NCBI GenBank assembly: GCA_024640505.1
Contig: JAHEEV010000008.1
Coordinates: 2,977-66,976, forward strand
Direction of reading: 5' to 3'
DNA length: 64,000 nt
DNA from: Halieaceae bacterium
GTDB taxonomy: Bacteria > Pseudomonadota > Gammaproteobacteria > Pseudomonadales > Halieaceae
Shown here: positions 15,374 to 51,488 of the stretch, piece after piece
How the letters are laid out: every line of letters starts with the position of its first letter
How positions within the stretch are numbered: position 1 is the stretch's first letter
Program-made: the position numbers and the translations under genes
Notes under the pieces: model-generated
What the model saw: the letters and a program-made list of their open reading frames with translations, nothing else
Told to the model about the DNA's origin: nothing
Database searches by the model: none

Positions 15374-15886
15374 TCAGCTCTCCTGGCTGGCAGCCGCGCG
15401 TGTCATGGCCTCGCCAAGCAGCGCAATATTTCCCCGGGTATAATTCATCTCCAGTTTCGACCTGCAGATAACCCAGCCCCGCGGTCCCTGCTCAAAGGTG
15501 TTGGTGTACTCCCCCACGACCGTCACCACGTCCTGTTCACCGGCAATAGTCACCTCGGGATCGGGATAAATCACGTGTTCCGCCGTCAAATAGGCCCGAC
15601 AGGTGACACTGTCACCCGCGAACTCGAAACGGTGGTTGGTAATGGTGTGCCGGGTGATGTCAAAACCGTTGATCACACTCTGTAACACCGGTATCCAGTC
15701 ATCCGCCGGACGCGGCACATCGGGACCACCGGAGGCCTCACTGAGGCCGCCGTAATCAAGGTACACTTCGTCCGCGAAGCAATCGCGCACCATGGACCAG
15801 TTCTTTCTGTCCAGGCCCTCGGCGTAGGCGTTGTAGTTTTCGATGATGGCAGCCCTTATCTCCGCCAGCTTATCGCTTGCAGCCAT
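15374..15886 (-). CDS. NTF2/SnoaL-like family protein
   Basis: 170 aa. The pattern NYNAYAEGLDRKNWSMVRDCFADEVYLDY ... ITRHTITNHRF ... CRAYLTAEH is typical of SnoaL_4/NTF2-fold proteins. Confidence 0.8.
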   Translation of the reverse strand: MAASDKLAEIRAAIIENYNAYAEGLDRKNWSMVRDCFADEVYLDYGGLSEASGGPDVPRPADDWIPVLQSVINGFDITRHTITNHRFEFAGDSVTCRAYLTAEHVIYPDPEVTIAGEQDVVTVVGEYTNTFEQGPRGWVICRSKLEMNYTRGNIALLGEAMTRAAASQES

Positions 15887-15892
15887 AGTGTT

Positions 15893-16672
15893 TCAGTCCT
15901 TATGCAATTTGGGCACGGCCCCTTCGGTGATCGTGGTCGTGTTGTCCACCACCATGGCCGCGCCGTTGACCGATTTTGATTCGTCGGAGGCGAGAAACAA
16001 CACCATATTGGCCACATCCGAAGGTTCGCCGACCCAGAGCTTGTCCATCTGTTCGACGGCGGCGGGATCACTCCTGAGAACCGTTTCCCGCATTTCCCGC
16101 AGCATGGGCGTGTCCATGTTACCGGGGTGTATGGAGTTGCAGCGCACCCCGTAACCCTCCTGGGCGCTCAGGCAGGCGACGGACTTTGTCATGCCGCGGA
16201 TGGCGCTTTTGGAAGCGGCATAGGCGAAGATATTCGGCCCGCCCTGGATGCTGGCCGTGGAACACATGTTGATAATGGATCCGCTGCCCTGCCGTTTCAT
16301 AATCCGCAACGCGTGCTTGCAACCGTAGAACGTGCCGTCGGTGCCCACCGCATTGACCAGGCGCCAGATAGCCTCGGTAGTGTCCTCGATGCTCGCCAGC
16401 CGGGCGACACCGGCACCATTGAGCACAATGTCGAGGCTGCCGGACTCCTCCACCACCTCATCGACCAGGCGCTCCCAGGCAGGTTCTCTGGTGACGTCCA
16501 GGAGGGCGAAGCGCGCACCCGGAATATCCGCCGCAGCTTCACGTCCCTGTTCTTCGTTGATGTCAGCCATCACCACCCGCGCGCCCTCTTCCGCCAGGCG
16601 CCTGGCCGATGCCAGGCCAAGGCCGGAGGCTGCGCCGGTGACGATAGCCACTTTTTCTTCTACACGTCCCAT
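15893..16672 (-). CDS. Short-chain dehydrogenase/reductase (SDR)
   Basis: TGAASGLG cofactor motif, NGAG, and catalytic YAASKSA (YxxxK). Confidence 0.9.
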   Translation of the reverse strand: MGRVEEKVAIVTGAASGLGLASARRLAEEGARVVMADINEEQGREAAADIPGARFALLDVTREPAWERLVDEVVEESGSLDIVLNGAGVARLASIEDTTEAIWRLVNAVGTDGTFYGCKHALRIMKRQGSGSIINMCSTASIQGGPNIFAYAASKSAIRGMTKSVACLSAQEGYGVRCNSIHPGNMDTPMLREMRETVLRSDPAAVEQMDKLWVGEPSDVANMVLFLASDESKSVNGAAMVVDNTTTITEGAVPKLHKD

Positions 16673-16739
16673 GGCTTTTTATTCCCGAAGAGGTTACCTG
16701 TCCGCTTGCAAATTTCTACCGCGATGTTACCTTATCATA

Positions 16740-16761
16740 AAACAGTCAGTCCGTACTGTTT
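16740..16761. promoter_or_regulatory. Operator-like palindrome, site a (AAACAGT-N8-ACTGTTT)
   Basis: ATAAAACAGTCAGTCCGTACTGTTTATAT lies in the 190-bp divergent region between SDR 15893..16672 and Rieske 16863..18254. It belongs to the recurring AAACAG...CTGTTT family (see findings). Confidence 0.45.
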
Positions 16762-16862
16762 ATATGAAAAATAATGGAAACCCGGCACGAGCGTGAAGGA
16801 ATTTGTGAGGTCGTCTTGCGCGACACGGCGACTGGGGCACTCAGCGACTTAGAGTAAACACC

Positions 16863-18254
16863 ATGGGAAAGAAAGTATCATCGAGCGACCCGGATAGACT
16901 GGCCCGCTCGCCGGGCAGGTCCTACCAGGAACTCCTGAACGAAGAGACGAACCCGGTCCCGGACTGCCTCCGGGAAAATACCAACCCCTACCTGGGTTCC
17001 GGGAACCTGTCCGTTGACCGCTATCTATCCCGGGAATTTCACGAGAAGGAAGTCGAGCACATCTGGAGGCGCACCTGGCAGGCCGTGTGCCGAGAAACCG
17101 AAGTTGCCGGGCCGGGCGATACACATGTCTATGATATCGTGCGCTTTTCCATCATCGTTTGCCGCACGCAAGAGGGCTCACTGAGAGCCTATCGCAACGC
17201 CTGCCTGCACCGCGGTCGACAACTCGTGGATCAGAACGGCAACTACGAGAAATTCAGCTGCCCCTACCACGCCTTTACCTGGAGCCTGGAAGGAGCGTTC
17301 AAGGGGGCCCCGTGCAAGTGGGATTTTCCCCATATCGATCCCGACAGGTTCGGCCTGCCACAGGTCCAGGTGGATACCTGGGGCGGCTGGGTGTTCATCA
17401 ACATGGATCGGGAGGCACCGCCGCTGCGCGACTACCTGGGTGTGCTGCCGGAACATTTCAAGCGCTGGAAGCCGGAAAACGCCTACAAGATGATACACGT
17501 GGAGAAGGTCATTCCGTGCAACTGGAAGGTCGGCTGGGAGGCATTCATCGAGTCTTACCATGCCGTGGCCACGCACCCCCAGATCCTTCACTATACGGCC
17601 GACGCCGACTCCCAGTACGATGTCTGGCCACCCCACATCAGCCGCACTATCACCGCCCTGGGCGTGCCGTCTTTCCACCTCGACGCTATAACAGACCAGC
17701 AGGTGGCGGATGCCATGCTGGGGGTTTCCGCCATGGTTGCCAGGCCTGACGGAACAGAAGTGCCCAGCGGCATGAGTGCCAGGGAGTTCATCGGCGTGAA
17801 GAATTCGGCAGAATTCAGCAAAAACCACGACCGGGAACTGGCGAGCTTCGCCACCAATGCGGAGCGCATGGACTCAATTCTCTATTCGATATTCCCCAAC
17901 TTCGCGCCATGGGCAGGCTTTCACCCCAACATCACCTACCGCTTCCGGCCCAACGGTGACGATCATACGACCGCGCTCATGGAGATCATGGTGCTGTGTC
18001 AGCTGCCAACGGGGGCGGAGCACCCCGGGGACTGTCCGGCTCGGCGCATGGGTGAGGACGAACTGTTTTCAGAGGCTCCGGAACTGGGCCCGGGCCTGGG
18101 CACGATCTTCGACCAGGACCTGTTTAACATGCCCATGATCCAGAAGGGCATGCACAATGTGGAGTCGCGGGAGCTGGTACTGGCCAACTACCACGAGGTC
18201 CGCATCCGGCACTTTCACCAGACCATCGACAAATATATCAACGGGGAGCTGTAA
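16863..18254 (+). CDS. Rieske [2Fe-2S] non-haem-iron oxygenase, alpha subunit type (paralogue 1)
   Basis: Rieske motif CLHRGRQL...CPYHAFTW (CxH...CxxH). Large C-terminal catalytic domain. Full-length paralogue of 22219..23604. No beta subunit gene adjacent. Confidence 0.9.
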   Translation: MGKKVSSSDPDRLARSPGRSYQELLNEETNPVPDCLRENTNPYLGSGNLSVDRYLSREFHEKEVEHIWRRTWQAVCRETEVAGPGDTHVYDIVRFSIIVCRTQEGSLRAYRNACLHRGRQLVDQNGNYEKFSCPYHAFTWSLEGAFKGAPCKWDFPHIDPDRFGLPQVQVDTWGGWVFINMDREAPPLRDYLGVLPEHFKRWKPENAYKMIHVEKVIPCNWKVGWEAFIESYHAVATHPQILHYTADADSQYDVWPPHISRTITALGVPSFHLDAITDQQVADAMLGVSAMVARPDGTEVPSGMSAREFIGVKNSAEFSKNHDRELASFATNAERMDSILYSIFPNFAPWAGFHPNITYRFRPNGDDHTTALMEIMVLCQLPTGAEHPGDCPARRMGEDELFSEAPELGPGLGTIFDQDLFNMPMIQKGMHNVESRELVLANYHEVRIRHFHQTIDKYINGEL

Positions 18255-18327
18255 AGACCCCGCGCCGTGGCGCGCTGAAGATTTGCCTGCGCGTGGTCCG
18301 GCGTCTTTACCGGGGAGCGCGGCCGGG

Positions 18328-18831
18328 TCAGTCCGCAACACCCGGTACCGTCCCCTCATGAGACGCGTGGGCGATCTTGTCCCCGTCGAACAGCAGGCTC
18401 ATCTCCGGGATGAGTTCTATAACGACCCGCAGCGGCGTGTCCAGGTATGCCAGTGCGGCCTCGGCGGTCGGCGCCGGGTAGGGAGAAATGATCTCCGCCA
18501 TGGCGGGGTAAAACCAGTCCTTGGTGGCCTGGTCTTCATGCAGCACCACCCTGCCCTTGTAGGTGATCTGCTTGCCGGGCCCCATATCCGTGCCCATGCT
18601 GGAAATGACTACCGTAGCTCGAGGATCCCGCTGCAAAGCCTTGATGCGGGGCCGCTGGCGGGTAGCGGTCAGCCAGATGGAGCCATCCTTCGCGACGTAG
18701 TTCATGATCACGCCCATACCGTGACCTTCCTTGTTGGTCCAGATAAAGTTGCACTCGATCTGCTTCTCCAGCAGCTCCTGCTCCCGCTCCGGTGACAAGC
18801 GGTAAATGGTGACGTCTTCATAGCCCTGCAT
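18328..18831 (-). CDS. Pyridoxamine 5'-phosphate oxidase (PPOX) / flavin- or F420-binding split-barrel family protein
   Basis: 167 aa. NFIWTNKEGHGMGVIMNYVAKDGSIWLTATRQRPRIKALQRDPRATVVIS fits the PPOX-class split beta-barrel pattern. SD GGGAGAG lies 6 nt upstream of the ATG. Confidence 0.7.
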   Translation of the reverse strand: MQGYEDVTIYRLSPEREQELLEKQIECNFIWTNKEGHGMGVIMNYVAKDGSIWLTATRQRPRIKALQRDPRATVVISSMGTDMGPGKQITYKGRVVLHEDQATKDWFYPAMAEIISPYPAPTAEAALAYLDTPLRVVIELIPEMSLLFDGDKIAHASHEGTVPGVAD

Positions 18832-18866: not shown

Positions 18867-19625
18867 CTATTCGAAGCGGGGCAGATGCCCCATCTGCTGC
18901 CCACCCGCCAGATCCAGTACCTGCCCGTTGATGTAACCGGATCTTCCCTCGTCAGCCAGGAACAGGGCCGCCTCGGCCACGTCATCCAGGGTTCCCATCC
19001 GGCCTGCCGGGGTCTCCCTGAGGTGGCCCTGTACGACCGGATCCATCTCGAACAGCTCGGCAGTCATATCGGTATTTATCAGGCCGGCCGCGATTGAATT
19101 GAAGCGCACCTTCTGTGCCGCGTACTCCACCGCGGCGACCTTGATGGCGTAATCGATACCCGCTCGCGCGGCAGAGTAGACGGCCAGGCCGGGGCCGGGA
19201 ATACGCGCGGTCAGTGAAGACATGGTGATCACGGAACCCCCGTCGGACATGGCGGCGGCAGCGTGTTTGAAAAATAACAGTGCGCCGATGAAACTGGTTT
19301 CCAGGGAAGGCCGGATCTGCTCGGCAGTCAAATCCGCGATGGCGCCCGCGGCATAGTTGCCGGCGGAATAGACACCGATATCGACCCGGCCATAGTGCTC
19401 ACGTACCGCCGAAAACAGCCGCTCGATCTGCTGCTCGTCGCTGACGTCGCAACCGACCGCCAGGCCCCCGAGTTCCGAGGCCAGCGCCCGCAAAGGCTCT
19501 TCACGGCGGGCCGTCACCACCACATTGGCGCCCTCGGCGCCCAGTCGCCGCGCAATGGCCGCGCCGAAATTGGCCTTGCCCGAGGCGCCCATTATCACTG
19601 CCGTCTTGCCGGCCAGAGTTCCCAT
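18867..19625 (-). CDS. SDR family oxidoreductase (atypical: YSAAR instead of YxxxK)
   Basis: Rossmann N-terminus KTAVIMGASGKANFGAAIARRL and NSIAAG. The active-site tetrad position reads VYSAARAG (codon CGA), so the usual Lys is Arg. SD AGGAGGA upstream. Confidence 0.85.
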   Translation of the reverse strand: MGTLAGKTAVIMGASGKANFGAAIARRLGAEGANVVVTARREEPLRALASELGGLAVGCDVSDEQQIERLFSAVREHYGRVDIGVYSAGNYAAGAIADLTAEQIRPSLETSFIGALLFFKHAAAAMSDGGSVITMSSLTARIPGPGLAVYSAARAGIDYAIKVAAVEYAAQKVRFNSIAAGLINTDMTAELFEMDPVVQGHLRETPAGRMGTLDDVAEAALFLADEGRSGYINGQVLDLAGGQQMGHLPRFE

Positions 19626-19747: not shown

Positions 19748-21370
19748 CTACTGGAGCCCCACCCGTTCTTTTATCCGCCGCCGCAGGACATCCTTGCGCA
19801 CCTTGCCGCTGGCGGTGCGCGGCAGTTCGTCGACCACCTCCACGTGCTGGGGAATCTTCTGTTTCGCCAGGCCGGCTTCATCGGCAAAGGCAGCCACCAG
19901 GGCGAGGTCTGGCACCACCTCCGCAGACTCCGGGATCACGAAAGCGCAGACACCCTCCCCCAGCCGCTCGTGGGGCATGGCTACCACGGCCGCTTCCCGA
20001 ATGCCCGGGTGGTCGTGGAGCACGTCCTCCACCTCCTTGGCGCTGATATTCTCTCCGCCGCGGATAATGATGTCCTTCTTGCGATCAGTGATGAGAATGG
20101 CGTCATCCGCGGTACGCTGGCCTATATCACCGGTGAGGAAAAAGCCGTCACTGTCATGGGCTTCTGCATCCTGTCGGGGATCGGCATAACCCAGCATCTT
20201 GCCCGCACCCCGTGCGGCGATTTCACCGTCCTCTCCGATGCCCAGTTCCTTGCCCTCCTCATCGAGGATCTTCACCTCGTAGCCGAATATTTTGCCATCG
20301 GTCTCGGCAGCCAGTTGCCGCTCCCCCTCGCCGACGAAGCCCAGGGTGATAATGGGCACCTCGGTACTGCCATAGACCCTGAAGGCCCTGCAGTTATCCA
20401 AAACCTCCCAGGCGCGGGTGACCACCTGTGGTGGCACCGCCGCGCCCCCGCAGGCAAAGAGGCGCATGCTGGGCAGGCCGGTGCCGGCGCGCTCTGCGGC
20501 GTCTACCAGCTCCACCAGGAAAGGTGTCGCCCCTACACTCGCCGTGGCGCCTACTTTCTGAATGAATGCTACTGCGGCATCCGCGTCCCAACGGGCCATC
20601 AGCGCGGACTTGGTCGGGGTCACGAATGGCAACACCATCCCGGAGCCATAACCGGTGATATGGGTAACGGGCGACGGCATCAGCATGACGTCGCGCTCAT
20701 CCAGCTGCCAGTAGTCCCGGGAATTATGGATGACCCGGGTCAGGGTATTGTGGCTGTGGAGCACCGCCTTGGGGTTGCCGGTGGTGCCCGACGTGTAGAG
20801 GATCGCCTTGATGCAATTGGGATCTATCGCCGGCAGCGTGGCGAGATCGGCCGCCTCATTGTTCACCAGGTTCTCGTAGCACAGCATCCCGGGGTGCTCA
20901 TCCTGCGCCCTTACCGTGACGATGTATTCCAGGTCTGGCAGGTCCGGCTGCAGGCCGGCCAGCATCGAGGGAAACTCCAGGCTGCGTATCTGCTCGGGAA
21001 TGTAGATCAGGCGGGTGCGCGCGTCCTTGAGGATGAAGCGCAGCTCATGGTCGCGGTAGATGGGTATCACCGGATTGACGATCAGGCCCATTGCCGAGGC
21101 GGCAATGTCCAGCACCACCGACTCGCGCCAGTTGGGCAACTGGAAGCTGACCACGTCGCCCTCCTTCAGGCCCAGCCCGCGCAGACCGGTCACCAGTCGC
21201 AGGGCCTCATCGGCGATAGCGCCGTAGGTGATGGGCGGCTCGTCCTCGAGGTAGATCGCCACCTCGTCCGGCATTTTCTCCGCCTTCTCCCAGGCCGCGG
21301 TGGCGATGGTCTTGTTGAACCAGAGGTGTTGGTCCCGCTCTATACGCGCCTGGCTCAGGGGATTTTTCAT
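19748..21370 (-). CDS. Acyl-CoA synthetase (AMP-forming adenylating enzyme, ANL superfamily)
   Basis: AMP-binding motif YTSGTTGNPKAV, also TGDIG and a C-terminal ...GKVRKDVLR. Confidence 0.9.
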   Translation of the reverse strand: MKNPLSQARIERDQHLWFNKTIATAAWEKAEKMPDEVAIYLEDEPPITYGAIADEALRLVTGLRGLGLKEGDVVSFQLPNWRESVVLDIAASAMGLIVNPVIPIYRDHELRFILKDARTRLIYIPEQIRSLEFPSMLAGLQPDLPDLEYIVTVRAQDEHPGMLCYENLVNNEAADLATLPAIDPNCIKAILYTSGTTGNPKAVLHSHNTLTRVIHNSRDYWQLDERDVMLMPSPVTHITGYGSGMVLPFVTPTKSALMARWDADAAVAFIQKVGATASVGATPFLVELVDAAERAGTGLPSMRLFACGGAAVPPQVVTRAWEVLDNCRAFRVYGSTEVPIITLGFVGEGERQLAAETDGKIFGYEVKILDEEGKELGIGEDGEIAARGAGKMLGYADPRQDAEAHDSDGFFLTGDIGQRTADDAILITDRKKDIIIRGGENISAKEVEDVLHDHPGIREAAVVAMPHERLGEGVCAFVIPESAEVVPDLALVAAFADEAGLAKQKIPQHVEVVDELPRTASGKVRKDVLRRRIKERVGLQ

Positions 21371-21415: not shown

Positions 21416-22192
21416 TTAAAGGCTGGACAGTACATGGCCGCCATCAACCGTCAGGGCCGCACCGGTCATGAGTGCGCCGGCCGGTGAAGCCAGCAGCAAC
21501 AGCGGGCCATTCAGATCCTGGAGGTCTCCGACCCGACGCTGGGGAATGCGACGGATCATCTCCTGCCCCGCTTCGGATGCCAGCCAGCCGCGGTTCAGGT
21601 CGGTCTCAAAATAGCCGGGGCAGATGGCGTTCACCCGAATTCCGTGCTCGGCCAGCTCCAGCGCCGCTGTGCGGGTGAACTGCACCACCCCGGCCTTTGA
21701 CGCGGCGTAGTTGGTCAGCAGTTTCTGCTCCCGGTGGGCCAGGATGGAGGCGATATTGATCACGCTGCCGCCGATGCCCGCGGCAATCATGCGCTGTGCA
21801 GACTCCCGGGTCACAAACGCCAGGCCGTTGAGGTTGGTATCAATCACCCCGGACCAGTCGTCGTCCTCGAGGTCCACCAGGGGTTTGGGGATAGTGATGC
21901 CGGCATTATTGACCACGACCGATACGGTACCGAAGGTTTGCTCCGCGGCGTCGAAGGCGCTGGCGATGCTGGCGCTTGACGTGACATCCATGGTGACCGC
22001 CACAGCCTCTCCACCGGCTTCGTTAATCTCATCACAGGCGGCCTGAACCCGCTCGCTGCGACGGGCTGCCAGGACGACTTGCGCACCGGCCCTGGCCAGC
22101 ACCGCGCCAAAATGGCGACCGAAGCCACTTGAAGCGCCCGTCACGAGGGCGGTTTTACCCTCCAGCAGGAATGGCTGGAACAGGTCATTCAT
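21416..22192 (-). CDS. SDR family oxidoreductase
   Basis: TGASSGFG, NNAG, YAASKAG. Confidence 0.9.
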   Translation of the reverse strand: MNDLFQPFLLEGKTALVTGASSGFGRHFGAVLARAGAQVVLAARRSERVQAACDEINEAGGEAVAVTMDVTSSASIASAFDAAEQTFGTVSVVVNNAGITIPKPLVDLEDDDWSGVIDTNLNGLAFVTRESAQRMIAAGIGGSVINIASILAHREQKLLTNYAASKAGVVQFTRTAALELAEHGIRVNAICPGYFETDLNRGWLASEAGQEMIRRIPQRRVGDLQDLNGPLLLLASPAGALMTGAALTVDGGHVLSSL

Positions 22193-22218: not shown

Positions 22219-23604
22219 TCAGGCGTAGACATATTTATCCAGGGTCTGGTGGAAATGCCGGATGCGGATCTCCTGGTAGTTCCCCAGCACCACTTCACCG
22301 GACTTCAGGTTTTTCAGACCCCGCTGCACCATCTTCAGGTTGCTGAAGTCCTGGTCGAAGACCCGGCCCAGCCCCCCTTCCAGGCCTTCGGCCTCGGAGA
22401 ACAGCTGGTCCTTGTCCAGCCGCTGCACCGGGCAGTCCACAGGGCGATCCTCTCCCTCGGGGTAGCGCATCAGGACAATGATCTCCATGGTGCACATCTC
22501 GTGGTTGTCACCATAGGGTTTCATACGATAGGTCAGGTTGGGATGGAAACCCGCCCAGGGCGCGAAGTTGGGAAACAGGGAATACAGGATCGAATCCATG
22601 ATTTCGCTATGTGTGCAAAAACTTGCAAGGTCTGTTTTGTACTGCTCGGAGAAGGCACTGAAGTAATAATCCGCCAGCCATTCCCGGGCTGTCATGCCCT
22701 CGGGGACCTCCATCTTTTCGCCGCCTGCCAGCAGGTTCGCATGCTGCAACCAGTCGTTGACGGTCTGGCCGGGTTCGACATTTTCCAGGTGCGGGCTGAC
22801 GACCCCCATGGGCGAAATGGTGCGGCTGACGTTGTCCCCCCAGCAATCGTACTGGGAGTTGGAGTCCCCCAGGTAGGGCATTATCTGCGGGTGGGTCTGC
22901 ACGGTGTGAAAGGACTCGATGAAGGCCTCCCAGGCCACCTTCCAGTTGCACTCGATCACCTTCTCCACATGCAGGGCCTTGAACGTATTCTCGGGCTTCC
23001 AGCGGGTGAAGTGTTGCGGCAGGATTCCCATGTAACTCTGCAGTGACTCGGCCTCCAGGTCCATGTTCATGAAGACCCAGCCACCCCAGGTATCCACCTG
23101 CACTTGCGGGAGAGAAAACTCACTCTTGTTGATGTGGGGGAAATCCCACTCGCAGGGTGCCCCCTTGAAATCGCCCTCGAGGCTCCAGCGGAAGCCGTGG
23201 TAGGGACACTTGAATTCCCGGGCGTTACCACAGTCCTTGCGCAGCTGGCGGCCGCGGTGCAGGCAGGCGTTGTGATAACCCTTCAACGCGCCGGACTCAG
23301 TGCGTGTCACCACGATGGAGTAGGTGGTGATATCGTGGACAAAGTAGTCCCCGGGATTGCCGATTTCTGTTTCCCGGCAGACCGCCTGCCAGGTGCGGTT
23401 CCACATTTTCTCCACTTCGAGCTCGTGGAACTCGCGGCTCAGGTACCGGTCCACCGACAGGTTGTCGGAGCCCAGGAAGGTGTCGGTGCTCTCGCGAAGA
23501 GGGGCGGGCACGGGGTTGGTCTCTCTGTCCAGCATCTCCTGGTAGGTATCGCCATCGGAGCGGGTGACTACCCGGCCGTCCTCCAGCTCAATACTTCTGC
23601 TCAA
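22219..23604 (-). CDS. Rieske [2Fe-2S] non-haem-iron oxygenase, alpha subunit type (paralogue 2)
   Basis: CLHRGRQL...CPYHGFRW. Shares long identical blocks with 16863..18254 (NLSVDRYLSREFHE, RTWQAVCRETE, QVQVDTWGGWVF, FPNFAPWAGFHPN). The ORF track starts at 23823, inside the upstream thiolase gene. I place the start at TTG 23604, 6 nt after AGGAGA (23616-23611), giving 461 aa against 463 aa for the paralogue. Confidence 0.9.
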   Translation of the reverse strand: MSRSIELEDGRVVTRSDGDTYQEMLDRETNPVPAPLRESTDTFLGSDNLSVDRYLSREFHELEVEKMWNRTWQAVCRETEIGNPGDYFVHDITTYSIVVTRTESGALKGYHNACLHRGRQLRKDCGNAREFKCPYHGFRWSLEGDFKGAPCEWDFPHINKSEFSLPQVQVDTWGGWVFMNMDLEAESLQSYMGILPQHFTRWKPENTFKALHVEKVIECNWKVAWEAFIESFHTVQTHPQIMPYLGDSNSQYDCWGDNVSRTISPMGVVSPHLENVEPGQTVNDWLQHANLLAGGEKMEVPEGMTAREWLADYYFSAFSEQYKTDLASFCTHSEIMDSILYSLFPNFAPWAGFHPNLTYRMKPYGDNHEMCTMEIIVLMRYPEGEDRPVDCPVQRLDKDQLFSEAEGLEGGLGRVFDQDFSNLKMVQRGLKNLKSGEVVLGNYQEIRIRHFHQTLDKYVYA

Positions 23605-23614
23605 AATGTTTCTC

Positions 23615-24760: not shown

Positions 24761-25195
24761 TCAGTCTCCCGCTGCCACCGGCTTGAAGAAAAAGCTGATG
24801 ACCTCGTCGCCGTTGTCTTCTGTACGCCAGGTCTCGAATACCACGTCCATTTCCATTCCAATCTGTATTTTGTCGGGGTCGTTCTCCGTAAGCCGCCCTT
24901 CTACCCGCACGCCGCCCGGCAGTTCGAGATAGCCCACGCCGTAAGGCTTGAAAGTCTCCGGCGTCTCGCCGCTGAGGTAGGGTGGCTTGGGCATGAACTG
25001 CTGCACGGTCCAGGTCCACAGCGTCCCGCGGGTGGGCAGTTCCTCGACCGATACATCCTCGCCGCTGCAGGCCATACAGGATTGCGCTACCGGAAAAGTG
25101 GCAATACCGCAGTTGTTGCACCGACTGCCCAGCAGGGCCGGGTTATCCGCAGGCCAGGTGAACAGGCCCTCGGCGATGGGAAGTTGCTTACTCAT
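24761..25195 (-). CDS. Zn-ribbon + OB-fold protein (DUF35 family), thiolase partner
   Basis: ATG at 25195. Rubredoxin-like CNNCGIATFPVAQSCMACSG (CxxC...CxxC) followed by an OB-fold-like C-terminus, the usual DUF35 architecture. Confidence 0.85.
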   Translation of the reverse strand: MSKQLPIAEGLFTWPADNPALLGSRCNNCGIATFPVAQSCMACSGEDVSVEELPTRGTLWTWTVQQFMPKPPYLSGETPETFKPYGVGYLELPGGVRVEGRLTENDPDKIQIGMEMDVVFETWRTEDNGDEVISFFFKPVAAGD

Positions 25196-25255
25196 GGTTT
25201 TCTCTGGTCTCACCTCTTCCCGACACAATAATCAGGGACGGCCGGGGATATGGCC

Positions 25256-29137: not shown

Positions 29138-29239
29138 GGTAGCAGCTGCCTTTTGCGATAAAGCGTTTACCTGCACCGACGTCGGCAACAGGAGCGCATT
29201 GAGCGCCGGGATGAGAGGGCAACATAGTCTGTCACAAAA

Positions 29240-43167: not shown

Positions 43168-43374
43168 GTGTCCCTGTTGAGTGATTTTCTTGCCCCGCGA
43201 AAACGCCTGCTACGCCAGGCGCGTGAAATCAGGCAATTGAAAAAAGAGCTGGACGCGCTGCAGGCCCGGAACGCCAGCATGAGCGAGGGGATGCGCCGCT
43301 GCATTAACTGCGAGTATCGCATCGACTTCAAGAACCGGCAGGGGCAGGCCCCCGTCAAGATTTCCAACCCGTGA
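43168..43374 (+). CDS. Possible small protein (68 aa, coiled-coil N-terminus, CxxC)
   Basis: GTG lies 1 nt after the preceding stop. It fills an otherwise unexplained 225-bp gap in a tight operon. Most codons end in G/C like neighbouring genes. RRCINCEY motif. No homology recognised. Confidence 0.4.
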   Translation: MSLLSDFLAPRKRLLRQAREIRQLKKELDALQARNASMSEGMRRCINCEYRIDFKNRQGQAPVKISNP

Positions 43375-43390: not shown

Positions 43391-44263
43391 ATGTCAGTAA
43401 TACTCGTCACCGGGGCCAGTACCGGTATCGGCCAGGCAACCGCCCTGCACCTGGCCAGTAAAGGGCACCGTGTTTTTGCCGGGGTGCGCAGCCCTGATAC
43501 TGCCACTGAACTGAAAAATAAAATCGCCGCCGACGATGTACCCGTGGAACTGGTCCAGCTGGATATCACCGACCAGCCATCCGTAGACCGGGCCATCAAC
43601 GACATCATGGCCAGTGCCGGACGCATCGATGCCCTGGTCAACAACGCCGGGATCGGCGGTGGACGTGCCGTGGAGGAAACGCCTCTGGAAGAAGTGCGGG
43701 AGGTCTTCGAAACCAATTACTTCGGCACGGTGCGTATGCTGCATGCGATTACCCCGATTATGCGTGAACAGCGCTCGGGACGGATCGTCAACATGAGCTC
43801 ACTGGCAGGCCGGATGGTTTTCGGCTGCCATGGACACTACTCCGCAGCCAAGTGGGCCCTGGAAGGCCTGAGTGAGGCCCTGGCCTTTGAAATGGCGGAA
43901 TTCAATGTTCGAGTGGCCCTGATCGAACCCGGTACGGTCCCGACTCCGGCCTGGGAAAAAGGCACGCCACCGCCGGACGATACCCATTACACCAACAGCC
44001 TGCAGCGGCTCGCCGCCTGGGCGACACATACCATGAGTAACCCTGCCGCCCCACTCGACGTTGCCGTTGCGGTAGCCCACGCCATCGAGTCCGACACGCC
44101 CCACTTCCGCTATCCGGTGGGACAGGACGCCATAGAAGATATTGCCGGCCGCTTCAGCGTCACCGACGATGAGTGGATCGAGGCCAATCGCCTGCAGGGA
44201 GAGGCCTTTTATGAGCGCTGGGAGGAAATCGTCGGGGTAGACTACTTCCGATACCAGACCTGA
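43391..44263 (+). CDS. SDR family oxidoreductase
   Basis: SD GAGAGGA upstream. TGASTGIG, NNAG, YSAAKWA. Confidence 0.9.
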   Translation: MSVILVTGASTGIGQATALHLASKGHRVFAGVRSPDTATELKNKIAADDVPVELVQLDITDQPSVDRAINDIMASAGRIDALVNNAGIGGGRAVEETPLEEVREVFETNYFGTVRMLHAITPIMREQRSGRIVNMSSLAGRMVFGCHGHYSAAKWALEGLSEALAFEMAEFNVRVALIEPGTVPTPAWEKGTPPPDDTHYTNSLQRLAAWATHTMSNPAAPLDVAVAVAHAIESDTPHFRYPVGQDAIEDIAGRFSVTDDEWIEANRLQGEAFYERWEEIVGVDYFRYQT

Positions 44264-44304: not shown

Positions 44305-45093
44305 ATGAAGCAGATAGCGGGCCGCGTCGCGGTGGTTACAGGAGCGGGCAGCGGTATTGGACAGGCCCTGAGCCTGGAACTCGCAAAGTGCGGCGCGGAC
44401 ATCGCGCTGGTCGATATCGATTCAGGCCGCCTGGCTGATACCCGCGAGGCCGTTGCAGCGCTGGGCAGGAAGTGCAGCGCTCACGCTGTGGATGTTTCCC
44501 GCCGCGAGCAGATGGCCGCGCTACCGGATCAGATCCTGGCGGAACACGGGGCTGTTCATATTCTGGTGAACAATGCGGGGGTATCGGTAAACAAGAGCTT
44601 CGCCGAGCAGGAAGTCGACGACCTCGAGTGGATCACAGGAATCAATTACTGGGGCGTCATGTACGGCTGCAAGTACTTCCTGCCCCATCTGGAAAGAGCG
44701 GACGAGTCCCATATCGTCAACATGTCCAGTTCCGCGGGCTTGACCGGGATGAAGGGACAGAGCTCCTATGCAGCCACCAAATTCGCCGTGAGAGGACTGA
44801 GTGAATGCCTCTACGTCGAACTGGCCAACACCGGGGTTGGAGTTACCTGTGTCCACCCGGGAGCCGTGGCAACCAATATCCTTGAAGCCGCGCGCATGGA
44901 CCCCGCACACAAGAAGAAAATGCTCAAGTCCTTCCACCTGGCCATGCCGCCAGAGACCGCGGCGCGTCTTATTGTGAAAGCCATCAGGAAAAACCGGTTC
45001 AAGCTTGTGTTCTGTGTCGATTCCAGAGTACTGAATTTTATGCAGCGCGTGGCGCCCATCGGTACGCTGAAGCTCATGCGGCTGCTCGCCTGA
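44305..45093 (+). CDS. SDR family oxidoreductase
   Basis: TGAGSGIG, NNAG, YAATKFA. Confidence 0.9.
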   Translation: MKQIAGRVAVVTGAGSGIGQALSLELAKCGADIALVDIDSGRLADTREAVAALGRKCSAHAVDVSRREQMAALPDQILAEHGAVHILVNNAGVSVNKSFAEQEVDDLEWITGINYWGVMYGCKYFLPHLERADESHIVNMSSSAGLTGMKGQSSYAATKFAVRGLSECLYVELANTGVGVTCVHPGAVATNILEAARMDPAHKKKMLKSFHLAMPPETAARLIVKAIRKNRFKLVFCVDSRVLNFMQRVAPIGTLKLMRLLA

Positions 45094-45107: not shown

Positions 45108-46139
45108 TTACAAGCGGGTCAGAACCTTGCACTGATGACTGGGTGTGCGCAGCGCCTCGAAAGCTTCGGGCAGTTGCTCCAGGTCGACCACGTCCGTGAT
45201 CATGGGTGATATGTCGATACGCCCCTCCCCCAGCATGGCGATACAGGTCTCGAAGTCATCCCGTGTGTAGGCGATGGCGAACTGGATATGCAGTTCCTTC
45301 ACCAGACCGAAGAAAGGCATGATGGCGTCGGGTTGTTCGCACACACCCACCGGAATGATCTTGCCGCGCTGTGGCGCCATTTCGATACACTGCTGCAGTA
45401 GTCCCGGTGCCCCGACACACTCGAAGATGATATCCGGTGGGCCTCCGGCCACATCGCTGAACTGGGCCAGCAGGGTCTCCGCATCGGCAGAGGGATCCGG
45501 CTGAATTACGCCGGTGGCACCCATCTTCCTGGCCAGTTCCGCCCGCGTATCCGCCATCTCACTGACCACCACCTCTCGAGCGCCAAAAAACCGCGCCCAC
45601 AGAGCGACGGTCAAACCTATCGGCCCGGCGCCGATCACCATCACCCGGCTGCCCGCCTTGAGGTCAGACACCCGCACTGCGTGAATACCCACGGCCAGGG
45701 GCTCAATCAGCGCAGCCCGTTCCAGTTCCAGGTTGTCCGGCAGCAGCAGGGTCTCCCGGGAACCGGCATTGACGTACTCGGCAAACCCGCCGGGGGAATT
45801 GACGCCGGACAGAAGTTTGTCCTGACACTCGAAGAAACGGCCGGTAGCGCAGGCGGCACAATGACCACAGGCCAGAAACGGGATAGAACATACTCTGTCC
45901 CCGACTTCCCAGTTGCCATCCGCCCTGGGTCCCACCTCGACGATTTCGCCCACATATTCGTGACCAAGAATCTGGCCGCAGCAGGCTGTGGTAAGGCCCT
46001 CCCGGGTAGCGTGGAGGTCGGTTCCGCAGATGCCGCAGTAACCCACTTTAATGACCAACCCATCTTCACGGGGTACGGGATCGGCAACGGACTCCACTTT
46101 CAGCGGTTTACCGACCTCTTTGAATACGGCAGCCCTCAT
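45108..46139 (-). CDS. Zinc-dependent alcohol dehydrogenase (MDR family)
   Basis: CGICGTDLH, GHEYVGEIVEVG, structural-zinc cluster CGHCAACATGRFFEC, Rossmann VIGAGPIG. Confidence 0.9.
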   Translation of the reverse strand: MRAAVFKEVGKPLKVESVADPVPREDGLVIKVGYCGICGTDLHATREGLTTACCGQILGHEYVGEIVEVGPRADGNWEVGDRVCSIPFLACGHCAACATGRFFECQDKLLSGVNSPGGFAEYVNAGSRETLLLPDNLELERAALIEPLAVGIHAVRVSDLKAGSRVMVIGAGPIGLTVALWARFFGAREVVVSEMADTRAELARKMGATGVIQPDPSADAETLLAQFSDVAGGPPDIIFECVGAPGLLQQCIEMAPQRGKIIPVGVCEQPDAIMPFFGLVKELHIQFAIAYTRDDFETCIAMLGEGRIDISPMITDVVDLEQLPEAFEALRTPSHQCKVLTRL

Positions 46140-48349: not shown

Positions 48350-49114
48350 ATGGGCAAGAGTGATCGCATCGATGTCTACCTGGTGGCAGGCGGCAAGTAC
48401 CACAATATCGATCACGCCAGGCTGGAAATTCTCAAGCTTCTGGCACAGCAACCCCGGATCAAGACCCGCGTGGGTGAAGATTACCGGGACATCGATGCAA
48501 TCTGCGCGTCCGACTTCCTGATCACTTATACCTGCGACGTGGTTCCCGGTGAAGCGGAAACCGCCCGGCTCCAGGAGTATATCCGGTCGGGAAAAAAGTG
48601 GTTCGCGTTGCACGGGACCAATTCCATCCTGGAATTCCTCGCACCGGATGAGGACGGCAACCCCCAGGTAGACTGTCCCGAGCGCAATGTGCCCTTCATG
48701 GAAATCCTGGGCAGCCAGTTCACGTCCCACCCGCCCATTCACGAGTACGAGGTGCTGGTCACCGACCCGGCACACCCGCTGGTGAAGGACATTCCCACCT
48801 TCAGGGTGGACGACGAGTTGTACCTGTGCAAATTTTACGGCGAGTACCAGACCCTGCTCCACACCCACTGGTCCGAACCGGTGGCCAATTTCGTGAGAGA
48901 TGACTGGGTTAAAGACACCGATGTACAGCCGGTCTTCTACCTGCATCCCTACGGCCAGGGCACGGTACTCTACCTCACCCTCGGCCACTGTCGGGGCAAG
49001 TACGATATGCAGCCGCTTATCGAAGAGTACCCGGTACCCGAGGATGGGGCCTGGAAAACCGGGGAATTCTACGAACTCCTCCAGCGCGGCATACAATGGG
49101 CCATGGAGCCCTGA
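48350..49114 (+). CDS. ThuA-domain (class I glutamine-amidotransferase-like fold) protein
   Basis: RIDVYLVAGGKYHNIDHARLEILKLL ... FLITYTCDVVP ... KKWFALHGTNS fits the ThuA pattern as I recall it. Confidence 0.75.
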   Translation: MGKSDRIDVYLVAGGKYHNIDHARLEILKLLAQQPRIKTRVGEDYRDIDAICASDFLITYTCDVVPGEAETARLQEYIRSGKKWFALHGTNSILEFLAPDEDGNPQVDCPERNVPFMEILGSQFTSHPPIHEYEVLVTDPAHPLVKDIPTFRVDDELYLCKFYGEYQTLLHTHWSEPVANFVRDDWVKDTDVQPVFYLHPYGQGTVLYLTLGHCRGKYDMQPLIEEYPVPEDGAWKTGEFYELLQRGIQWAMEP

Positions 49115-49139
49115 TCATCCTCCAACGCCCGGGTAATCC

Positions 49140-50327
49140 ATGGACCTGAACTTCACAGAGCAAGAGCGGCAATTCCAGCACGACGTGCGGCAATTCCTGG
49201 CGGAGCATCTCACACCGGACATCGTCGAAGACACCGCAAGGAACAGCAGCGTATTTGTGGAGAAGGACTTGGCACTGCACTGGCAGGCCATTCTGGTGGA
49301 AAAGGGCTGGGCGGTTCCACAATGGCCTGTGGCGCACGGCGGCACCGACTGGACGCCGGCCCAGAAGTATATCTTCAGCCGCGAATGTTATCTGGCAGGC
49401 GCCCCGATGTTGATTCCCCTGGGCCTGCTCATGTTGGCTCCGGTGATTATGGCGTTTGGTAGCGAGGAGCAGAAAGCCGAATACCTGCCGAAAATTCTTT
49501 CCGGTGAACACTACTGGTGCCAGGGCTATTCCGAACCCGGTGCCGGATCCGACCTGGCCAGCCTCAAACTGAAGGCCGAAGCGGACGGCGACGACTATAT
49601 CGTCAATGGCTCCAAACTGTGGACCACCCATGCCCACCTGGCGGACCACATCTTCTGCCTGGTGCGCACCAGCAACAGCGAACGCCCGCAGCAGGGCATA
49701 AGCTTCCTGCTGGTGGACATGGACAGCCCCGGCGTCACCGTTGAACCCATACTCACCATGGCCGGGGATCACGAGGTCAACCAGGTCTTCTTCGACGATG
49801 TGCGTGTTCCGCAGAAAAACCGTATCGGAGAGGAAAACAAGGGCTGGAGCTATGCCAAATACCTGTTGGAATTCGAACGCGGTGGCGGGTTCAGTGCGCC
49901 GCGTATCCAGCACGAGCTGGATCGGCTGCGCAACATGGTTGAAGAAGCGATCAAAACTGTCGACAATTTCGATGAGAGCGGCGAGATCGAGCGGCGGATA
50001 GCCCGCATCGATATCGATCTCAAGGCACTGGAGATCACCGAGCTTCGAATCCTGTCCGCAGTAAGCGGCGGCGGCAATCCCGGCCCCGAGTCATCCATAT
50101 TGAAACTCAACACGGTACGTCTCGAGCAGGCTATCAACGAACTGGCTGTTGACGTCATGGGTTATCGGGGTCTCTCCATGAATCCGGTGGCGGGGGGTAG
50201 CCCCTATCGCGAGGACTTCACGGCCTCGGTAGTACCGCGCTACCTGAATAACCGGGCGGCGTCCATCTTCGGTGGCTCCCAGGAAGTACAACGCAACATT
50301 ATCGCCAAGATGGTACTGGGGCTGTAA
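49140..50327 (+). CDS. Acyl-CoA dehydrogenase family protein
   Basis: MDLNFTEQERQFQHDVRQFL..., YSEPGAGSDLASL, C-terminal IFGGSQEVQRNIIA. Confidence 0.9.
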   Translation: MDLNFTEQERQFQHDVRQFLAEHLTPDIVEDTARNSSVFVEKDLALHWQAILVEKGWAVPQWPVAHGGTDWTPAQKYIFSRECYLAGAPMLIPLGLLMLAPVIMAFGSEEQKAEYLPKILSGEHYWCQGYSEPGAGSDLASLKLKAEADGDDYIVNGSKLWTTHAHLADHIFCLVRTSNSERPQQGISFLLVDMDSPGVTVEPILTMAGDHEVNQVFFDDVRVPQKNRIGEENKGWSYAKYLLEFERGGGFSAPRIQHELDRLRNMVEEAIKTVDNFDESGEIERRIARIDIDLKALEITELRILSAVSGGGNPGPESSILKLNTVRLEQAINELAVDVMGYRGLSMNPVAGGSPYREDFTASVVPRYLNNRAASIFGGSQEVQRNIIAKMVLGL

Positions 50328-51488
50328 ATGGAAAGAGAACTACTGATCGAGGAAGTAAAAACCCTGCTGGACCTGGTCGATTGCAACAGCACCACGCTGG
50401 CGGACAGCGTGATGGAGATCGACGCCACCGAGTACATCGATTCGGCGCTTTTCCAGCAGGAAAAGATCGAGCTGTTCCGCAACTATCCGCAGTTCGTCGG
50501 ACCCAGTTGCATGATCCCGGAGCCCGGAGACTACTTTGCCTTCGACGATACGGGCATTCCCATCCTCATCGTACGCAATACAGAAGGCGTGCTGAAGGCG
50601 TTCGTCAACATCTGCTCTCATCGTGGAGCACCCCTCAACGAATGCGATCACGGCAAGGCCAGGAAGGGCCGCATGTTCTCCTGCCCCTACCACGGCTGGA
50701 GTTACGACCTGGACGGCAAGCTTATAGGCGTGCCTTTTGGCAAAGAGGGCTTCGACAGCATCGATCGGTCAGTTCTGGGCCTGAGACCGTTGGACGTTCA
50801 GGAAAAGCACGGCTGTATCTTTGTCATGCCCAACCCGGAGCTGACTTTCGATATCGACCAGGTACTGGGGGGTCTGGAAGAACGCCTGTCGGGCTTCGGT
50901 TTCCAGGATCACTACTACCTGGGCGCCAAGCAGGTTCACACCAACTTCAGCTGGAAGCTGAACATGGACACCTTCCATGAGTATTACCATTTTGAGTTTC
51001 TGCACCCCGATTCTATCGCCCAGATGGCCTACAGTAATATCTCTACCTACCACCAGTATGGGCGCAATCACTCCATGGGCTCGCCGACACTGCAGATCAC
51101 GGACCTGAAGACCGTTCCCGAGGACCAGTGGAACCCGCGGAGTTACAGTTCTTATGTAAATTACATTTTCCCCAACGTGGTGATCTTCGTGGTTGAGGAT
51201 CACTTCCAGACGTGGCGGGTCTATCCCATCAGTCCTGACCGCTCGGTGGTCTACCACAGCATGTTCGTGCCACAGGCGCCAGCGAATGAAGAGGAGCGGC
51301 TGGAACGCGATGCCTACCACCAGATGATCAACGACGTGGCGGTTACCGAAGACTACGGACTGGTCGACAAGATTCACCGCGGACTCAACTGCGGCATCGA
51401 TCGCAAGGTGCTGGTAGGACGCAATGAACCCGGCGTGCAGAATATGCACCGTCAATTACATGAGGTACTGGGGATAGACCAGGTCTAA
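50328..51488 (+). CDS. Rieske [2Fe-2S] oxygenase alpha subunit (shorter, phthalate/KshA-like size class)
   Basis: The start abuts the ACAD stop (TAA then ATG). CSHRGAPL...CPYHGWSY. Mononuclear-iron region HEYYHFEFLHPD. Confidence 0.9.
   Translation: MERELLIEEVKTLLDLVDCNSTTLADSVMEIDATEYIDSALFQQEKIELFRNYPQFVGPSCMIPEPGDYFAFDDTGIPILIVRNTEGVLKAFVNICSHRGAPLNECDHGKARKGRMFSCPYHGWSYDLDGKLIGVPFGKEGFDSIDRSVLGLRPLDVQEKHGCIFVMPNPELTFDIDQVLGGLEERLSGFGFQDHYYLGAKQVHTNFSWKLNMDTFHEYYHFEFLHPDSIAQMAYSNISTYHQYGRNHSMGSPTLQITDLKTVPEDQWNPRSYSSYVNYIFPNVVIFVVEDHFQTWRVYPISPDRSVVYHSMFVPQAPANEEERLERDAYHQMINDVAVTEDYGLVDKIHRGLNCGIDRKVLVGRNEPGVQNMHRQLHEVLGIDQV

Follow-up and report, generated by a model that had tools for sequence, protein, structure and literature searches.

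A conserved Halieaceae gene supercluster as a candidate pathway for the uptake and degradation of carotenoid-type polyenes

Few lipophilic pigments of marine phototrophs are as abundant as carotenoids and Halieaceae are abundant coastal bacterioplankton, but to our knowledge the degradation of carotenoids by heterotrophic bacteria is essentially undefined genetically. Here, we analyse a stretch of 64,000 nucleotides from a Halieaceae bacterium (GenBank assembly GCA_024640505.1, contig JAHEEV010000008.1, positions 2,977 to 66,976; hereafter the window, with coordinates counted from its first letter), in which an enzyme-rich block of about 36 kb and about 35 genes (15374-51488) includes two carotenoid-cleavage-type oxygenases (CCO1 and CCO2). 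The locus raises the question of whether these genes belong together and, if they do, which substrate they would serve; an initial annotation had suggested a large hydrophobic polyene, isoprenoid or stilbenoid-type molecule. We find that the block is a real, conserved and co-localised gene set in Halieaceae, and its content points to a phytoplankton carotenoid or apocarotenoid as the most likely substrate. The full reading, in which the region is a supercluster for both uptake and degradation of a carotenoid or apocarotenoid-type polyene, has in our judgement about an even chance of being right. Its observed basis is gene content, conservation and sequence features, from which we infer every enzymatic step.

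Approximately 53 genes were called in the window from the length of open reading frames (ORFs) and the GC content at codon positions, and all 53 ORFs were scanned against Pfam. Every enzyme class that the initial annotation had listed for the block was recovered, together with items that it had missed, namely a VapBC toxin-antitoxin pair, a TetR-family regulator, a PNPOx-like protein, a ThuA-like protein, a 267-amino-acid (aa) protein and a conserved 68-aa ORF. The scan also agreed that the window has no extradiol or intradiol ring-cleavage dioxygenase and no aldehyde dehydrogenase. The latter absence is true of the window but specific to this genome, as relatives carry aldehyde dehydrogenase genes inside the cluster. 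With ring-cleavage and lower-pathway genes not found and the Rieske proteins being distant, alpha-only types, the view that this is not an ordinary aromatic-degradation island holds. Scans of the window for tRNA genes and Rfam families returned no feature, and its base composition is even. A plasmid origin, or identity with a known plasmid cluster, was rejected, since a megablast search of 24.6 kb against PLSDB gave only E1-beta matches of about 400 bp at 74-78% identity.

For the conservation of the block, all window proteins were compared by tblastn with 81 loci anchored on homologues of CCO2 and extending 10 kb to either side. CCO2 itself (38289-39719, minus strand) has homologues at 68-91% identity in Halioglobus, Marimicrobium, other Halieaceae and Oceanicoccus, and relatives in at least 523 genome loci, mostly of Halieaceae, with a best identity of 82% when one genome is taken per GTDB species. 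A TonB-dependent receptor (TBDR; 39895-42348, plus strand, with Pfam plug and barrel domains) lies near CCO2 in 63 of the 81 loci. The 267-aa protein (42363-43166, plus) does so in 64, at a median identity of 81% versus 72% for CCO2. Among the genes that accompany CCO2 and the receptor it is the best conserved. The short-chain dehydrogenase/reductase SDR4 (43391-44263, plus; Pfam) follows with 44 loci. Two acyl-CoA dehydrogenases, ACAD1 (37078-38196, minus; Pfam; 25 loci) and ACAD2 (49140-50327, plus; Pfam), as well as SDR6 (starting at 47504, plus; Pfam), the ThuA-like protein (48350-49114, plus; Pfam) and the medium-chain dehydrogenase/reductase MDR2, of the Zn-dependent alcohol dehydrogenase type (45108-46139, minus; Pfam), each recur in 23-25 loci. 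Less frequent are the TetR regulator (32982-33680, plus; Pfam; 17 loci at about 71% identity, conserved beside ACAD1), the Rieske alpha subunit A3 (50328-51488, plus; Pfam; 14 loci), a cytochrome P450 (46152-47402, minus; Pfam) and the molybdo/tungsto-enzyme MopB (both 11 loci), while the E1/E2 genes lie near CCO2 in only one or two. The flanking genes (1-15.3 kb and 51.6-64 kb; g1-g11, g46-g51 and g53) were found in none of the 81 loci, three weak matches to the DUF3604 protein (g52) excepted. Because cluster genes recur across these loci and flank genes do not, the grouping exceeds chance.

Gene maps of related genomes agree with these counts. Nearly the whole block, in shuffled order, is present in Halioglobus maricola, Seongchinamella unica, H. 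japonicus, Halioglobus sp. Uisw_031 and dozens of Halieaceae metagenome-assembled genomes (MAGs), and in H. maricola, Seongchinamella and MAGs the synteny includes the operon of CCO1. The order SDR6-ThuA-ACAD2-Rieske A3 is kept in ten related loci, and MDR2 and the P450 are syntenic in three loci. The CCO1 operon is a long minus-strand unit opened by CCO1 (25256-26662) and continued by a DUF35/ChsH2-type protein with OB-fold and zinc ribbon (24761-25228; PF01796 and PF12172), an SCP-x thiolase-like protein (23615-24760; Pfam Thiolase_C_1), the Rieske alpha subunit A2 (about 22219-23613; Pfam), SDR3 (21416-22192; Pfam; syntenic in three loci), an acyl-CoA synthetase (19748-21370; Pfam AMP-binding; syntenic in two) and SDR2 (18867-19625; Pfam; syntenic in two at 69-73% identity). 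The ORF listed for Rieske A2 starts at 23823 and overlaps the thiolase-like gene; its homologues have 461 aa, and in two loci such orthologues stand directly after the thiolase. On the other side of CCO1 lie a divergent SnoaL_4/NTF2-like gene, SnoaL_b (26812-27240, plus; Pfam), which is a conserved partner syntenic in four loci, then MDR1 (28124-29188, minus; Pfam ADH_N_2; syntenic in three), an ABM-domain monooxygenase-like gene, MopB, TetR and ACAD1, with identities of 65-87% across the arrangement. Across Halieaceae, Oceanicoccus and Microbulbifer, CCO1 has orthologues at 80-89% identity. In the window, the VapC (PIN) and Phd/YefM-like antitoxin genes (27258-27898, minus; Pfam PIN E 3.5e-17, PhdYeFM E 4e-4) form an insertion in the middle of the cluster, between SnoaL_b and MDR1. 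The pair occurs in none of the related loci and is not part of the pathway. Relatives carry extra genes, for aldehyde dehydrogenases and for hydratases of MaoC or crotonase type, as well as for a DLH hydrolase and a nitroreductase; the MaoC, DLH and nitroreductase genes are found in H. maricola, and sulfatase genes are inserted in one further locus.

A co-localised gene set could still be a mosaic of independent modules (CCO2 with the receptor; CCO1 with the thiolase-like protein and the acyl-CoA synthetase; an acetoin-type E1/E2 set; MopB with ABM and the luciferase-like protein) that act on different hydrophobic compounds, have gathered by chance in one neighbourhood of Halieaceae genomes and serve no single pathway. 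This reading draws on the organisation of the block, which comprises at least ten transcription units on alternating strands with the VapBC insertion among them, and on the differences in module content and order between genomes, the variable parts being SDR5, the left end (15374-18831) and the place that the E1/E2 and luciferase-like genes take, and the E1/E2 genes adjoining CCO2 so rarely. It also draws on Microbulbifer agarilyticus, where neither CCO2 nor TBDR genes were found within 10 kb on either side of the CCO1 locus, and on distant relatives such as locus L075, in which the triad of CCO2, TBDR and the 267-aa protein is all that remains. Against it, both CCO modules were located in four Halieaceae genomes and in every one the CCO1 operon is no more than 20 kb away from CCO2, and one TetR gene lies between the two halves of the cluster. 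In Microbulbifer, a set of E1a-E1b-E2-E3 genes stands between CCO1 and DUF35, within the CCO1 operon, which ties the thiamine pyrophosphate (TPP)-dependent set functionally to CCO1. Further, ACAD2 and ACAD1 have by a wide margin their best matches in the pimC_large (387.9 bits, cut-off 623.85) and pimD_small (325.6 bits, cut-off 652.7) models, and 11 kb separate their genes, which are on opposite strands, one in each half. From this resemblance they are probably two subunits of one enzyme, and as such they would link the halves. We regard the mosaic as unlikely, while leaving it some real weight.

The identity of the 267-aa protein bears directly on the substrate. When 27 divergent members of its family were scanned singly, 16 matched PF13225 (D27-like_C), the best at E 7.1e-5, and no other family was matched in more than one member. 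In an alignment of these 27 proteins (25-60% identity), C204, C226 and C258 are invariant or nearly so and C230 nearly so, together with K231, E235 and a P-x-L-P motif. The resulting spacing, C-x15/21-C-x3-C-x27-C, matches that of the 4Fe-4S ligands of rice OsD27 (C199-x11-C211-x3-C215-x26-C242), in which the CxxxC pair is on one helix and its mutation abolishes activity (PMC13254051), and all four cysteines have counterparts. In an alignment-based AF2 model of the window protein (pLDDT 88.1, pTM 0.85), helices pack on a four-stranded sheet and the CxxxC pair falls on a predicted helix (223-237). Foldseek searches of the PDB with this model returned TRAPP Bet3, TPC6 (2bjn), Trs31 (3cue) and H-NOX (6bde, 3nvr) at probabilities of 0.84-0.99, and the description of D27 names Bet3, TPC6 and H-NOX-type neighbours for D27 itself, including the same PDB entries (PMC13254051). 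We are fairly confident that the 267-aa protein is remotely homologous to D27, and on these sequence features it is a candidate polyene cis/trans isomerase with a putative 4Fe-4S cluster.

The association of this family with CCOs extends beyond the Halieaceae cluster. A metagenome scan seeded with the most divergent D27-like subgroup found a D27-like gene abutting an RPE65 gene in three further divergent lineages (loci L105, L103 and L100), whose D27-like proteins are 32%, 61% and 27% identical to the window protein, respectively, and keep the four cysteines. The functional coupling of the family to CCOs is well supported. In L100, a high-GC metagenome contig, four MlaD/Mce4_CUP1 lipid-importer genes, a gene for a 311-aa protein with no assigned function, the D27-like gene and a gene for a 518-aa RPE65 protein stand on one strand (33-7498). 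For comparison, Mycobacterium tuberculosis Rv0654 (MtCCO) adjoins mkl/mceG. The arrangement of a hydrophobic-substrate importer, a D27-like protein and a CCO accordingly recurs with two importer types. Tentatively, and with somewhat less confidence than in the reading of the block itself, this arrangement can be seen as a cross-phylum module for carotenoid scavenging, using TonB in Gammaproteobacteria and Mce in a distant high-GC lineage, which in Halieaceae would be wired to some 30 genes for CoA-dependent enzymes and oxygenases by which the fragments are mineralised. Separately, directly after the D27-like gene of the window lies the conserved 68-aa ORF (43168-43374, plus), which contains a CxxC motif (CINCEY) and has tblastn matches in 77 of the 123 loci compared (median identity 55%); a 63-aa gene is called at its position in H. 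maricola and in a JGI contig.

The enzymes around this core allow a second kind of substrate, a steroid, sterol or other non-carotenoid isoprenoid, whose side chain might for instance be of phytol, squalene or hopanoid type. For it the CCOs would be accessory, and side-chain and ring oxidation, on the pattern of sterol catabolism, would fall to the CoA ligase, the heteromeric acyl-CoA dehydrogenase, a thiolase-like/DUF35 aldolase, the P450 and the Rieske enzymes. Steroid side-chain systems (CYP125/142, FadD19, ChsE acyl-CoA dehydrogenases, ChsH1-ChsH2 with DUF35, and Ltp2) share several enzyme classes with the cluster, namely a P450 of terminal-methyl type, a CoA ligase, a two-subunit acyl-CoA dehydrogenase and a DUF35 protein with a degenerate SCP-x thiolase-like partner. 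The nearest solved relatives of the P450 are the steroid C26 monooxygenases CYP125 and CYP142, CYP150 and the vitamin-D3 hydroxylase Vdh, at about 220-237 bits, a likeness to CYP125/142 that is at family level only (about 237 bits). In the thiolase-like protein, compared with the SCP2-thiolase 6hsj, the nucleophilic cysteine is kept (NGCATG) while HDCF is replaced by QDTE and GHP by GEP, unlike in a canonical SCP-x/SCP2 thiolase, and these replacements make canonical thiolysis doubtful. From its active-site motifs the protein may instead be aldolase-like or another C-C lyase acting with the DUF35 partner, with which it is always paired (five loci). Ltp2-type aldolases likewise lack the canonical thiolase motifs. 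The acyl-CoA synthetase has its best NCBIfam matches in medium-chain and cyclohexanecarboxylate-CoA ligases (400-412 bits, below cut-off).

Analogues of several modules occur on plasmid pNL2 of Novosphingobium aromaticivorans, in an uncharacterised locus at 161-181 kb with a Rieske alpha-ThuA-ACAD unit and a DUF35-thiolase-ACAD-E1a-E1b-E2-VOC-TBDR unit. Its thiolase is 64% and its E1a and E1b are 59-62% identical to those of the window (the E1-beta gene about 77% at the nucleotide level), but it has neither a CCO nor a D27-like gene, and it offers no explanation of function. In the sequence retrieved for it (L086, NC_009427.1 161060-191495), the order runs SDRs-Rieske-ThuA-ACAD and, further on, GMC oxidoreductase / DUF35-thiolase-ACAD-E1a-E1b-E2-VOC-TBDR. 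In the block as on pNL2, a ThuA-like gene accompanies genes for Rieske alpha subunits and acyl-CoA dehydrogenases; the pNL2 copy has an overlap of 4 bp with the Rieske gene (L086 3515-4303). The ThuA-like protein might assist alpha-only Rieske enzymes, as an accessory or as a redox partner. This CCO-less analogue fits the steroid or isoprenoid reading, and sphingomonad clusters for bile-salt side chains likewise bring together a CoA ligase with an acyl-CoA dehydrogenase and a Rieske protein. As an orthologue, however, the bile-salt cluster was rejected, the likeness being thematic only (KshA-like Rieske, amidases) and the genes different.

Several features speak against a steroid. Among the 53 scanned ORFs we found no KstD, KshA-type Rieske protein, HsaA, HsaC, HsaD or Ipd/Ech-type protein, so that the genes of a 9,10-seco cluster and of the steroid nucleus in general are missing from the window. 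For the Rieske proteins the top-scoring models are GbcA/CntA-like and not KshA: their best NCBIfam scores are 102-119 bits versus cut-offs of at least 670, their PDB matches reach about 90 bits, and their nearest relatives are CntA/GbcA-type proteins and ring-hydroxylating dioxygenase (RHD) alpha subunits. The window holds no Ring_hydroxyl_B, ferredoxin or reductase gene such as an alpha-beta Rieske dioxygenase would have. A1 (16863-18254, plus; Pfam Rieske and Ring_hydroxyl_A; alpha-only) and A2 are 58.6% identical, as expected from the earlier claim that two of the three are close paralogues. Above all, the most conserved core of CCO2, TBDR and D27-like protein is left unexplained by steroid chemistry, CCOs and D27-like proteins having no role in known steroid pathways. 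We consider this reading improbable, slightly less so than those that follow.

Both CCOs are full-length members of the RPE65 family (PF03055, E 6e-117 for CCO1 and 1.4e-130 for CCO2). CCO2 starts 23 codons inside a 499-aa ORF, as all its homologues have about 476 aa. The histidines equivalent to NOV1 167, 218 and 284 are kept in both proteins, and the C-terminal histidine (GxHGxW) was seen for CCO2 only, in its pairwise alignments. The nearest solved structure to CCO1 is the apocarotenoid oxygenase (ACO) of Synechocystis (202 bits), whereas those nearest to CCO2 are the lignostilbene dioxygenases (LSDs) NOV1, NOV2 and LsdA (about 310 bits). With the LSDs of sphingomonad lignin-dimer catabolism (LsdA, LSD4, NOV1, NOV2), CCO2 shares the fold, the four histidine iron ligands and Phe-59. 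In LSDs, Tyr-101 and Lys-134 are the catalytic residues that bind the 4-hydroxyl of the substrate (PMC8191317). The positions of F59, Y101 and K134 are occupied by F, M and E in CCO2 and by L, V and W in CCO1 (MAFFT, with five pairwise HMMER alignments in agreement), and among 22 Halieaceae homologues of the CCO2 clade E138 is invariant and M102 is present in at least 90%. Against the LSD equivalog models NF053778 (cut-off 800) and NF053780 (cut-off 650), CCO2 scores 415.6 and 321.7 bits and CCO1 252.4 and 196.3 bits, and against the apocarotenoid 13,14-dioxygenase model NF052295 (cut-off 675) CCO1 scores 290.6 and CCO2 294.6 bits. Membership of the LSD family was rejected for both proteins, as its defining residues are replaced. 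Judged from these residues, CCO1 and CCO2 represent two uncharacterised CCO clades for which a 4-hydroxystilbene is an unlikely substrate, since both lack Tyr-101/Lys-134 and fall below the LSD cut-offs.

These data also speak against a lignin-derived or other phenolic alkene (a stilbenoid, a phenylcoumaran-derived stilbene, or an isoeugenol- or curcuminoid-type compound) that the CCOs would cleave and whose fragments would be shortened CoA-dependently. Such a substrate would suit the top PDB and NCBIfam matches of CCO2 to lignostilbene dioxygenases, and SnoaL/NTF2 proteins adjoin CCO and Rieske genes. The NTF2-fold lyase LdpA precedes LSD in the catabolism of beta-1 dimers. In addition, MDR1, an enone reductase of CurA/alkenal-one-reductase type, comes close to the cut-off of the NCBIfam curcumin reductase model (383.6 bits, cut-off 440). 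However, the residues that bind the 4-hydroxyl are replaced in both CCOs, the scores of 415 and 252 bits stand far below the cut-off of 800, and SnoaL_b was rejected as an LdpA-type diarylpropane lyase for want of such a PDB match, its best being Rv3472 with weak ones to BaiE, LinA and KSI. Lower-pathway genes for vanillate, protocatechuate or gallate are absent from the window, and with it from the vicinity of CCO2, as are ring-cleavage dioxygenases and O-demethylases of known type, and the D27-like partner would have no place. The stilbenoid option of the initial annotation is disfavoured accordingly, and we give phenolic alkenes in general little credence.

Least probable, to a degree that makes it quite unlikely, is that the core triad makes an apocarotenoid, such as retinal for a rhodopsin or a carlactone-like signal, from carotenoids that are scavenged or endogenous: carlactone biosynthesis follows exactly this enzyme order, D27 and then two CCOs (PMC13254051), and many bacterial CCOs yield retinal or apocarotenones in vitro (PMC5133782), but here the CCOs stand among an acyl-CoA synthetase, acyl-CoA dehydrogenases, a thiolase-like protein and E1/E2 genes beside an outer-membrane importer, the same triad logic lies behind an Mce lipid importer in L100, and the window has no rhodopsin or crt genes.

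In the carotenoid-catabolism reading, the TBDR would import the substrate, and the D27-like 4Fe-4S protein would isomerise a C=C bond (trans/cis) to give an isomer open to cleavage, the role that D27 has in plants ahead of CCD7 and CCD8. The two cytoplasmic CCOs, with differing specificity, would then cut conjugated C=C bonds with O2 to aldehydes and ketones, which the SDRs, the MDRs including the CurA-type enone reductase and, in relatives, aldehyde dehydrogenases would convert to saturated or partly saturated acids. Following activation by the acyl-CoA synthetase, the methyl-branched chains could be shortened by the PimCD-like two-subunit acyl-CoA dehydrogenase and the thiolase-like/DUF35 pair, to which relatives add MaoC or crotonase hydratases; the chain cleavage would probably be retro-aldol-like. 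The E1/E2 set, of pyruvate dehydrogenase (PDH) or acetoin type, may remove ketone or alpha-hydroxyketone units as acetyl-CoA. The Rieske enzymes, the CYP125/142-like P450, the luciferase-like protein, ABM and MopB may functionalise end groups such as ionone-type rings and terminal methyls with redox partners encoded elsewhere, and TetR would control expression. Of 11 N-termini inspected for signal peptides, that of the TBDR alone was positive and the inspected enzymes had none.

Besides the D27-like core, this reading is favoured by the closeness of CCO1 to ACO, of MDR1 to conjugated-enone reductases and of the P450 to terminal hydroxylases of isoprenoid side chains. Relative to the initial annotation, the carotenoid branch has thus gained a D27-like core protein and an adjacency of D27-like and CCO genes in distant lineages, while the stilbenoid branch has been weakened. 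Several points weigh against the carotenoid reading. The nearest characterised relatives of CCO2 cleave stilbenes and not carotenoids, and the CCO-less analogue on pNL2 implies that several of the modules are not carotenoid-specific. The window has no aldehyde dehydrogenase, hydratase or inner-membrane transporter, and no ferredoxin or reductase for the three Rieske enzymes and the P450; we found no precedent for TonB-dependent import of a C40 carotenoid; and the many alternating transcription units, the toxin-antitoxin insertion and the variable content sit less easily with one pathway. As for the 267-aa protein, its own match to PF13225, seen at a relaxed threshold, has 15.6 bits (E 0.016) versus a gathering score of 27, and a family profile search over 1.84 billion protein representatives, which returned 92 representatives at E <=1e-3, did not reach canonical D27, none of the 92 being obviously plant-type. 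The Foldseek E-values are weak (2e-3 or worse) and the TM scores are 0.3-0.5, so that the agreement is at fold level only, and the Bet3/H-NOX/V4R fold binds many hydrophobic ligands.

By analogy, the system appears most like a catabolic version of the D27-CCD7-CCD8 logic combined with CoA chemistry resembling that of steroid side chains. With the plant and cyanobacterial D27-CCD7-CCD8 system of carlactone and strigolactone formation it shares an Fe-S protein of D27 type and two different RPE65 oxygenases, and the 267-aa protein shares with D27 the cysteine ligand pattern, the layout of helices plus four strands and the structural neighbours. It differs from D27 in its remote similarity, below the Pfam gathering score, and in a long N-terminal helical extension; the window CCOs are not orthologues of CCD7 or CCD8 but nearest to LSD and ACO types; and the context, with an importer and CoA enzymes, is catabolic and not biosynthetic. 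Among bacterial apocarotenoid oxygenases (Synechocystis ACO, Novosphingobium NACOX1, MtCCO and SaCCO), CCO1 is nearest to ACO and reaches about 290 bits in NCBIfam, below the equivalog cut-off of 675. These enzymes have no defined catabolic cluster or physiological role, bacterial CCOs having been studied as isolated enzymes in vitro (PMC5133782). None of the pathway-defining enzymes of the cluster reaches an NCBIfam equivalog cut-off, the models passed being the generic TIGR03621 and PDH E1-beta models and that of a pyrroloquinoline quinone (PQQ) dehydrogenase outside the cluster. We found no characterised orthologous pathway in NCBIfam equivalogs, the PDB or the literature. Literature searches, whose coverage is incomplete and therefore no proof, gave nothing relevant on Halieaceae carotenoid oxygenases, on clusters of CCO, TonB and Rieske genes or on bacterial growth on carotenoids, and no genetically defined bacterial pathway of carotenoid catabolism, in line with the initial claim that none had been defined. 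What is new is an unrecognised D27-like branch and new CCO clades in a cluster of known superfamilies.

The remaining members of the block can be described briefly. At its variable left end lie a SnoaL_4/NTF2-like gene (15374-15886, minus; PF13577 E 2.4e-20; one of the 81 loci), SDR1 (15893-16672, minus; Pfam adh_short E 3.7e-50), Rieske A1 and the PNPOx-like flavin-binding split-barrel protein, which closes the long minus-strand operon (18328-18831; PF01243 E 1.2e-7). SDR5 (44305-45093, plus; Pfam) is likewise variable. The ABM gene (29334-29681, plus; Pfam ABM E 1.5e-12) stands directly 5' of MopB in three related loci, and in a fourth no MopB adjoins it. In the region 29256-29720 its ORF overlaps, in another frame, the long ORF listed for MopB (29452-31887). 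As MopB homologues have 723-741 aa, the start is placed near 29662-29716 and the listed ORF is probably not translated over its first 70-88 codons, giving a gene at about 29701-31887 (plus; Pfam) for a cytoplasmic protein with an N-terminal 4Fe-4S domain and weak similarity to FdhF, acetylene hydratase and thiosulfate reductase. The luciferase-like (LLM) oxidoreductase (31872-32879, plus; Pfam) adjoins MopB in one related locus and passes TIGR03621 (268.6 bits, cut-off 213). The TPP-dependent E1 alpha (33810-34793), E1 beta (about 34798-35802) and E2 genes (ORF 35700-37004, with a lipoyl domain from about residue 40), all on the plus strand and recognised by Pfam, are PDH-like in NCBIfam, E1-beta passing a generic subfamily model; no E3 gene accompanies them at 33810-37004.

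Outside the block, a PQQ quinohaemoprotein alcohol dehydrogenase gene (12004-14397, minus) lies about 1 kb to the left, its product having a PQQ propeller and a C-terminal cytochrome c domain and passing TIGR03075. It could serve periplasmic alcohol or aldehyde oxidation; the gene was not seen in related loci. Farther left, Pfam gave no match at E <=1e-5 for four consecutive minus-strand ORFs (2519-5163; 363, 182, 161 and 136 aa). The right flank (51656-63977) encodes a di-haem cytochrome c, a second TetR regulator, a 418-aa protein with no assigned function, a DUF1592/DUF1588/DUF1585 (PSD/PSCyt) protein, a DUF1552 protein, a second TonB receptor, a DUF3604 protein (783 bits) and a BD-FAE-type esterase, and is a separate, uncharacterised uptake or hydrolase set.

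The cluster offers a concrete gene set in cultivable Halieaceae, namely Halioglobus maricola, H. japonicus and Seongchinamella unica. It suggests that the family of D27 Fe-S isomerases has a new branch in bacteria, and it points to an LSD-related CCO clade with a Met/Glu pair in place of Tyr/Lys for anchoring the substrate, and its MopB, alpha-only Rieske, degenerate thiolase-like and PDH-like E1/E2 proteins may be a solution to the beta-oxidation of a methyl-branched polyene. Even with another substrate, the triad of importer, D27-like protein and CCO would be a new functional association. If the carotenoid reading is true, the cluster would represent the first genetically defined bacterial pathway of carotenoid catabolism and a sink for the pigments of phytoplankton.

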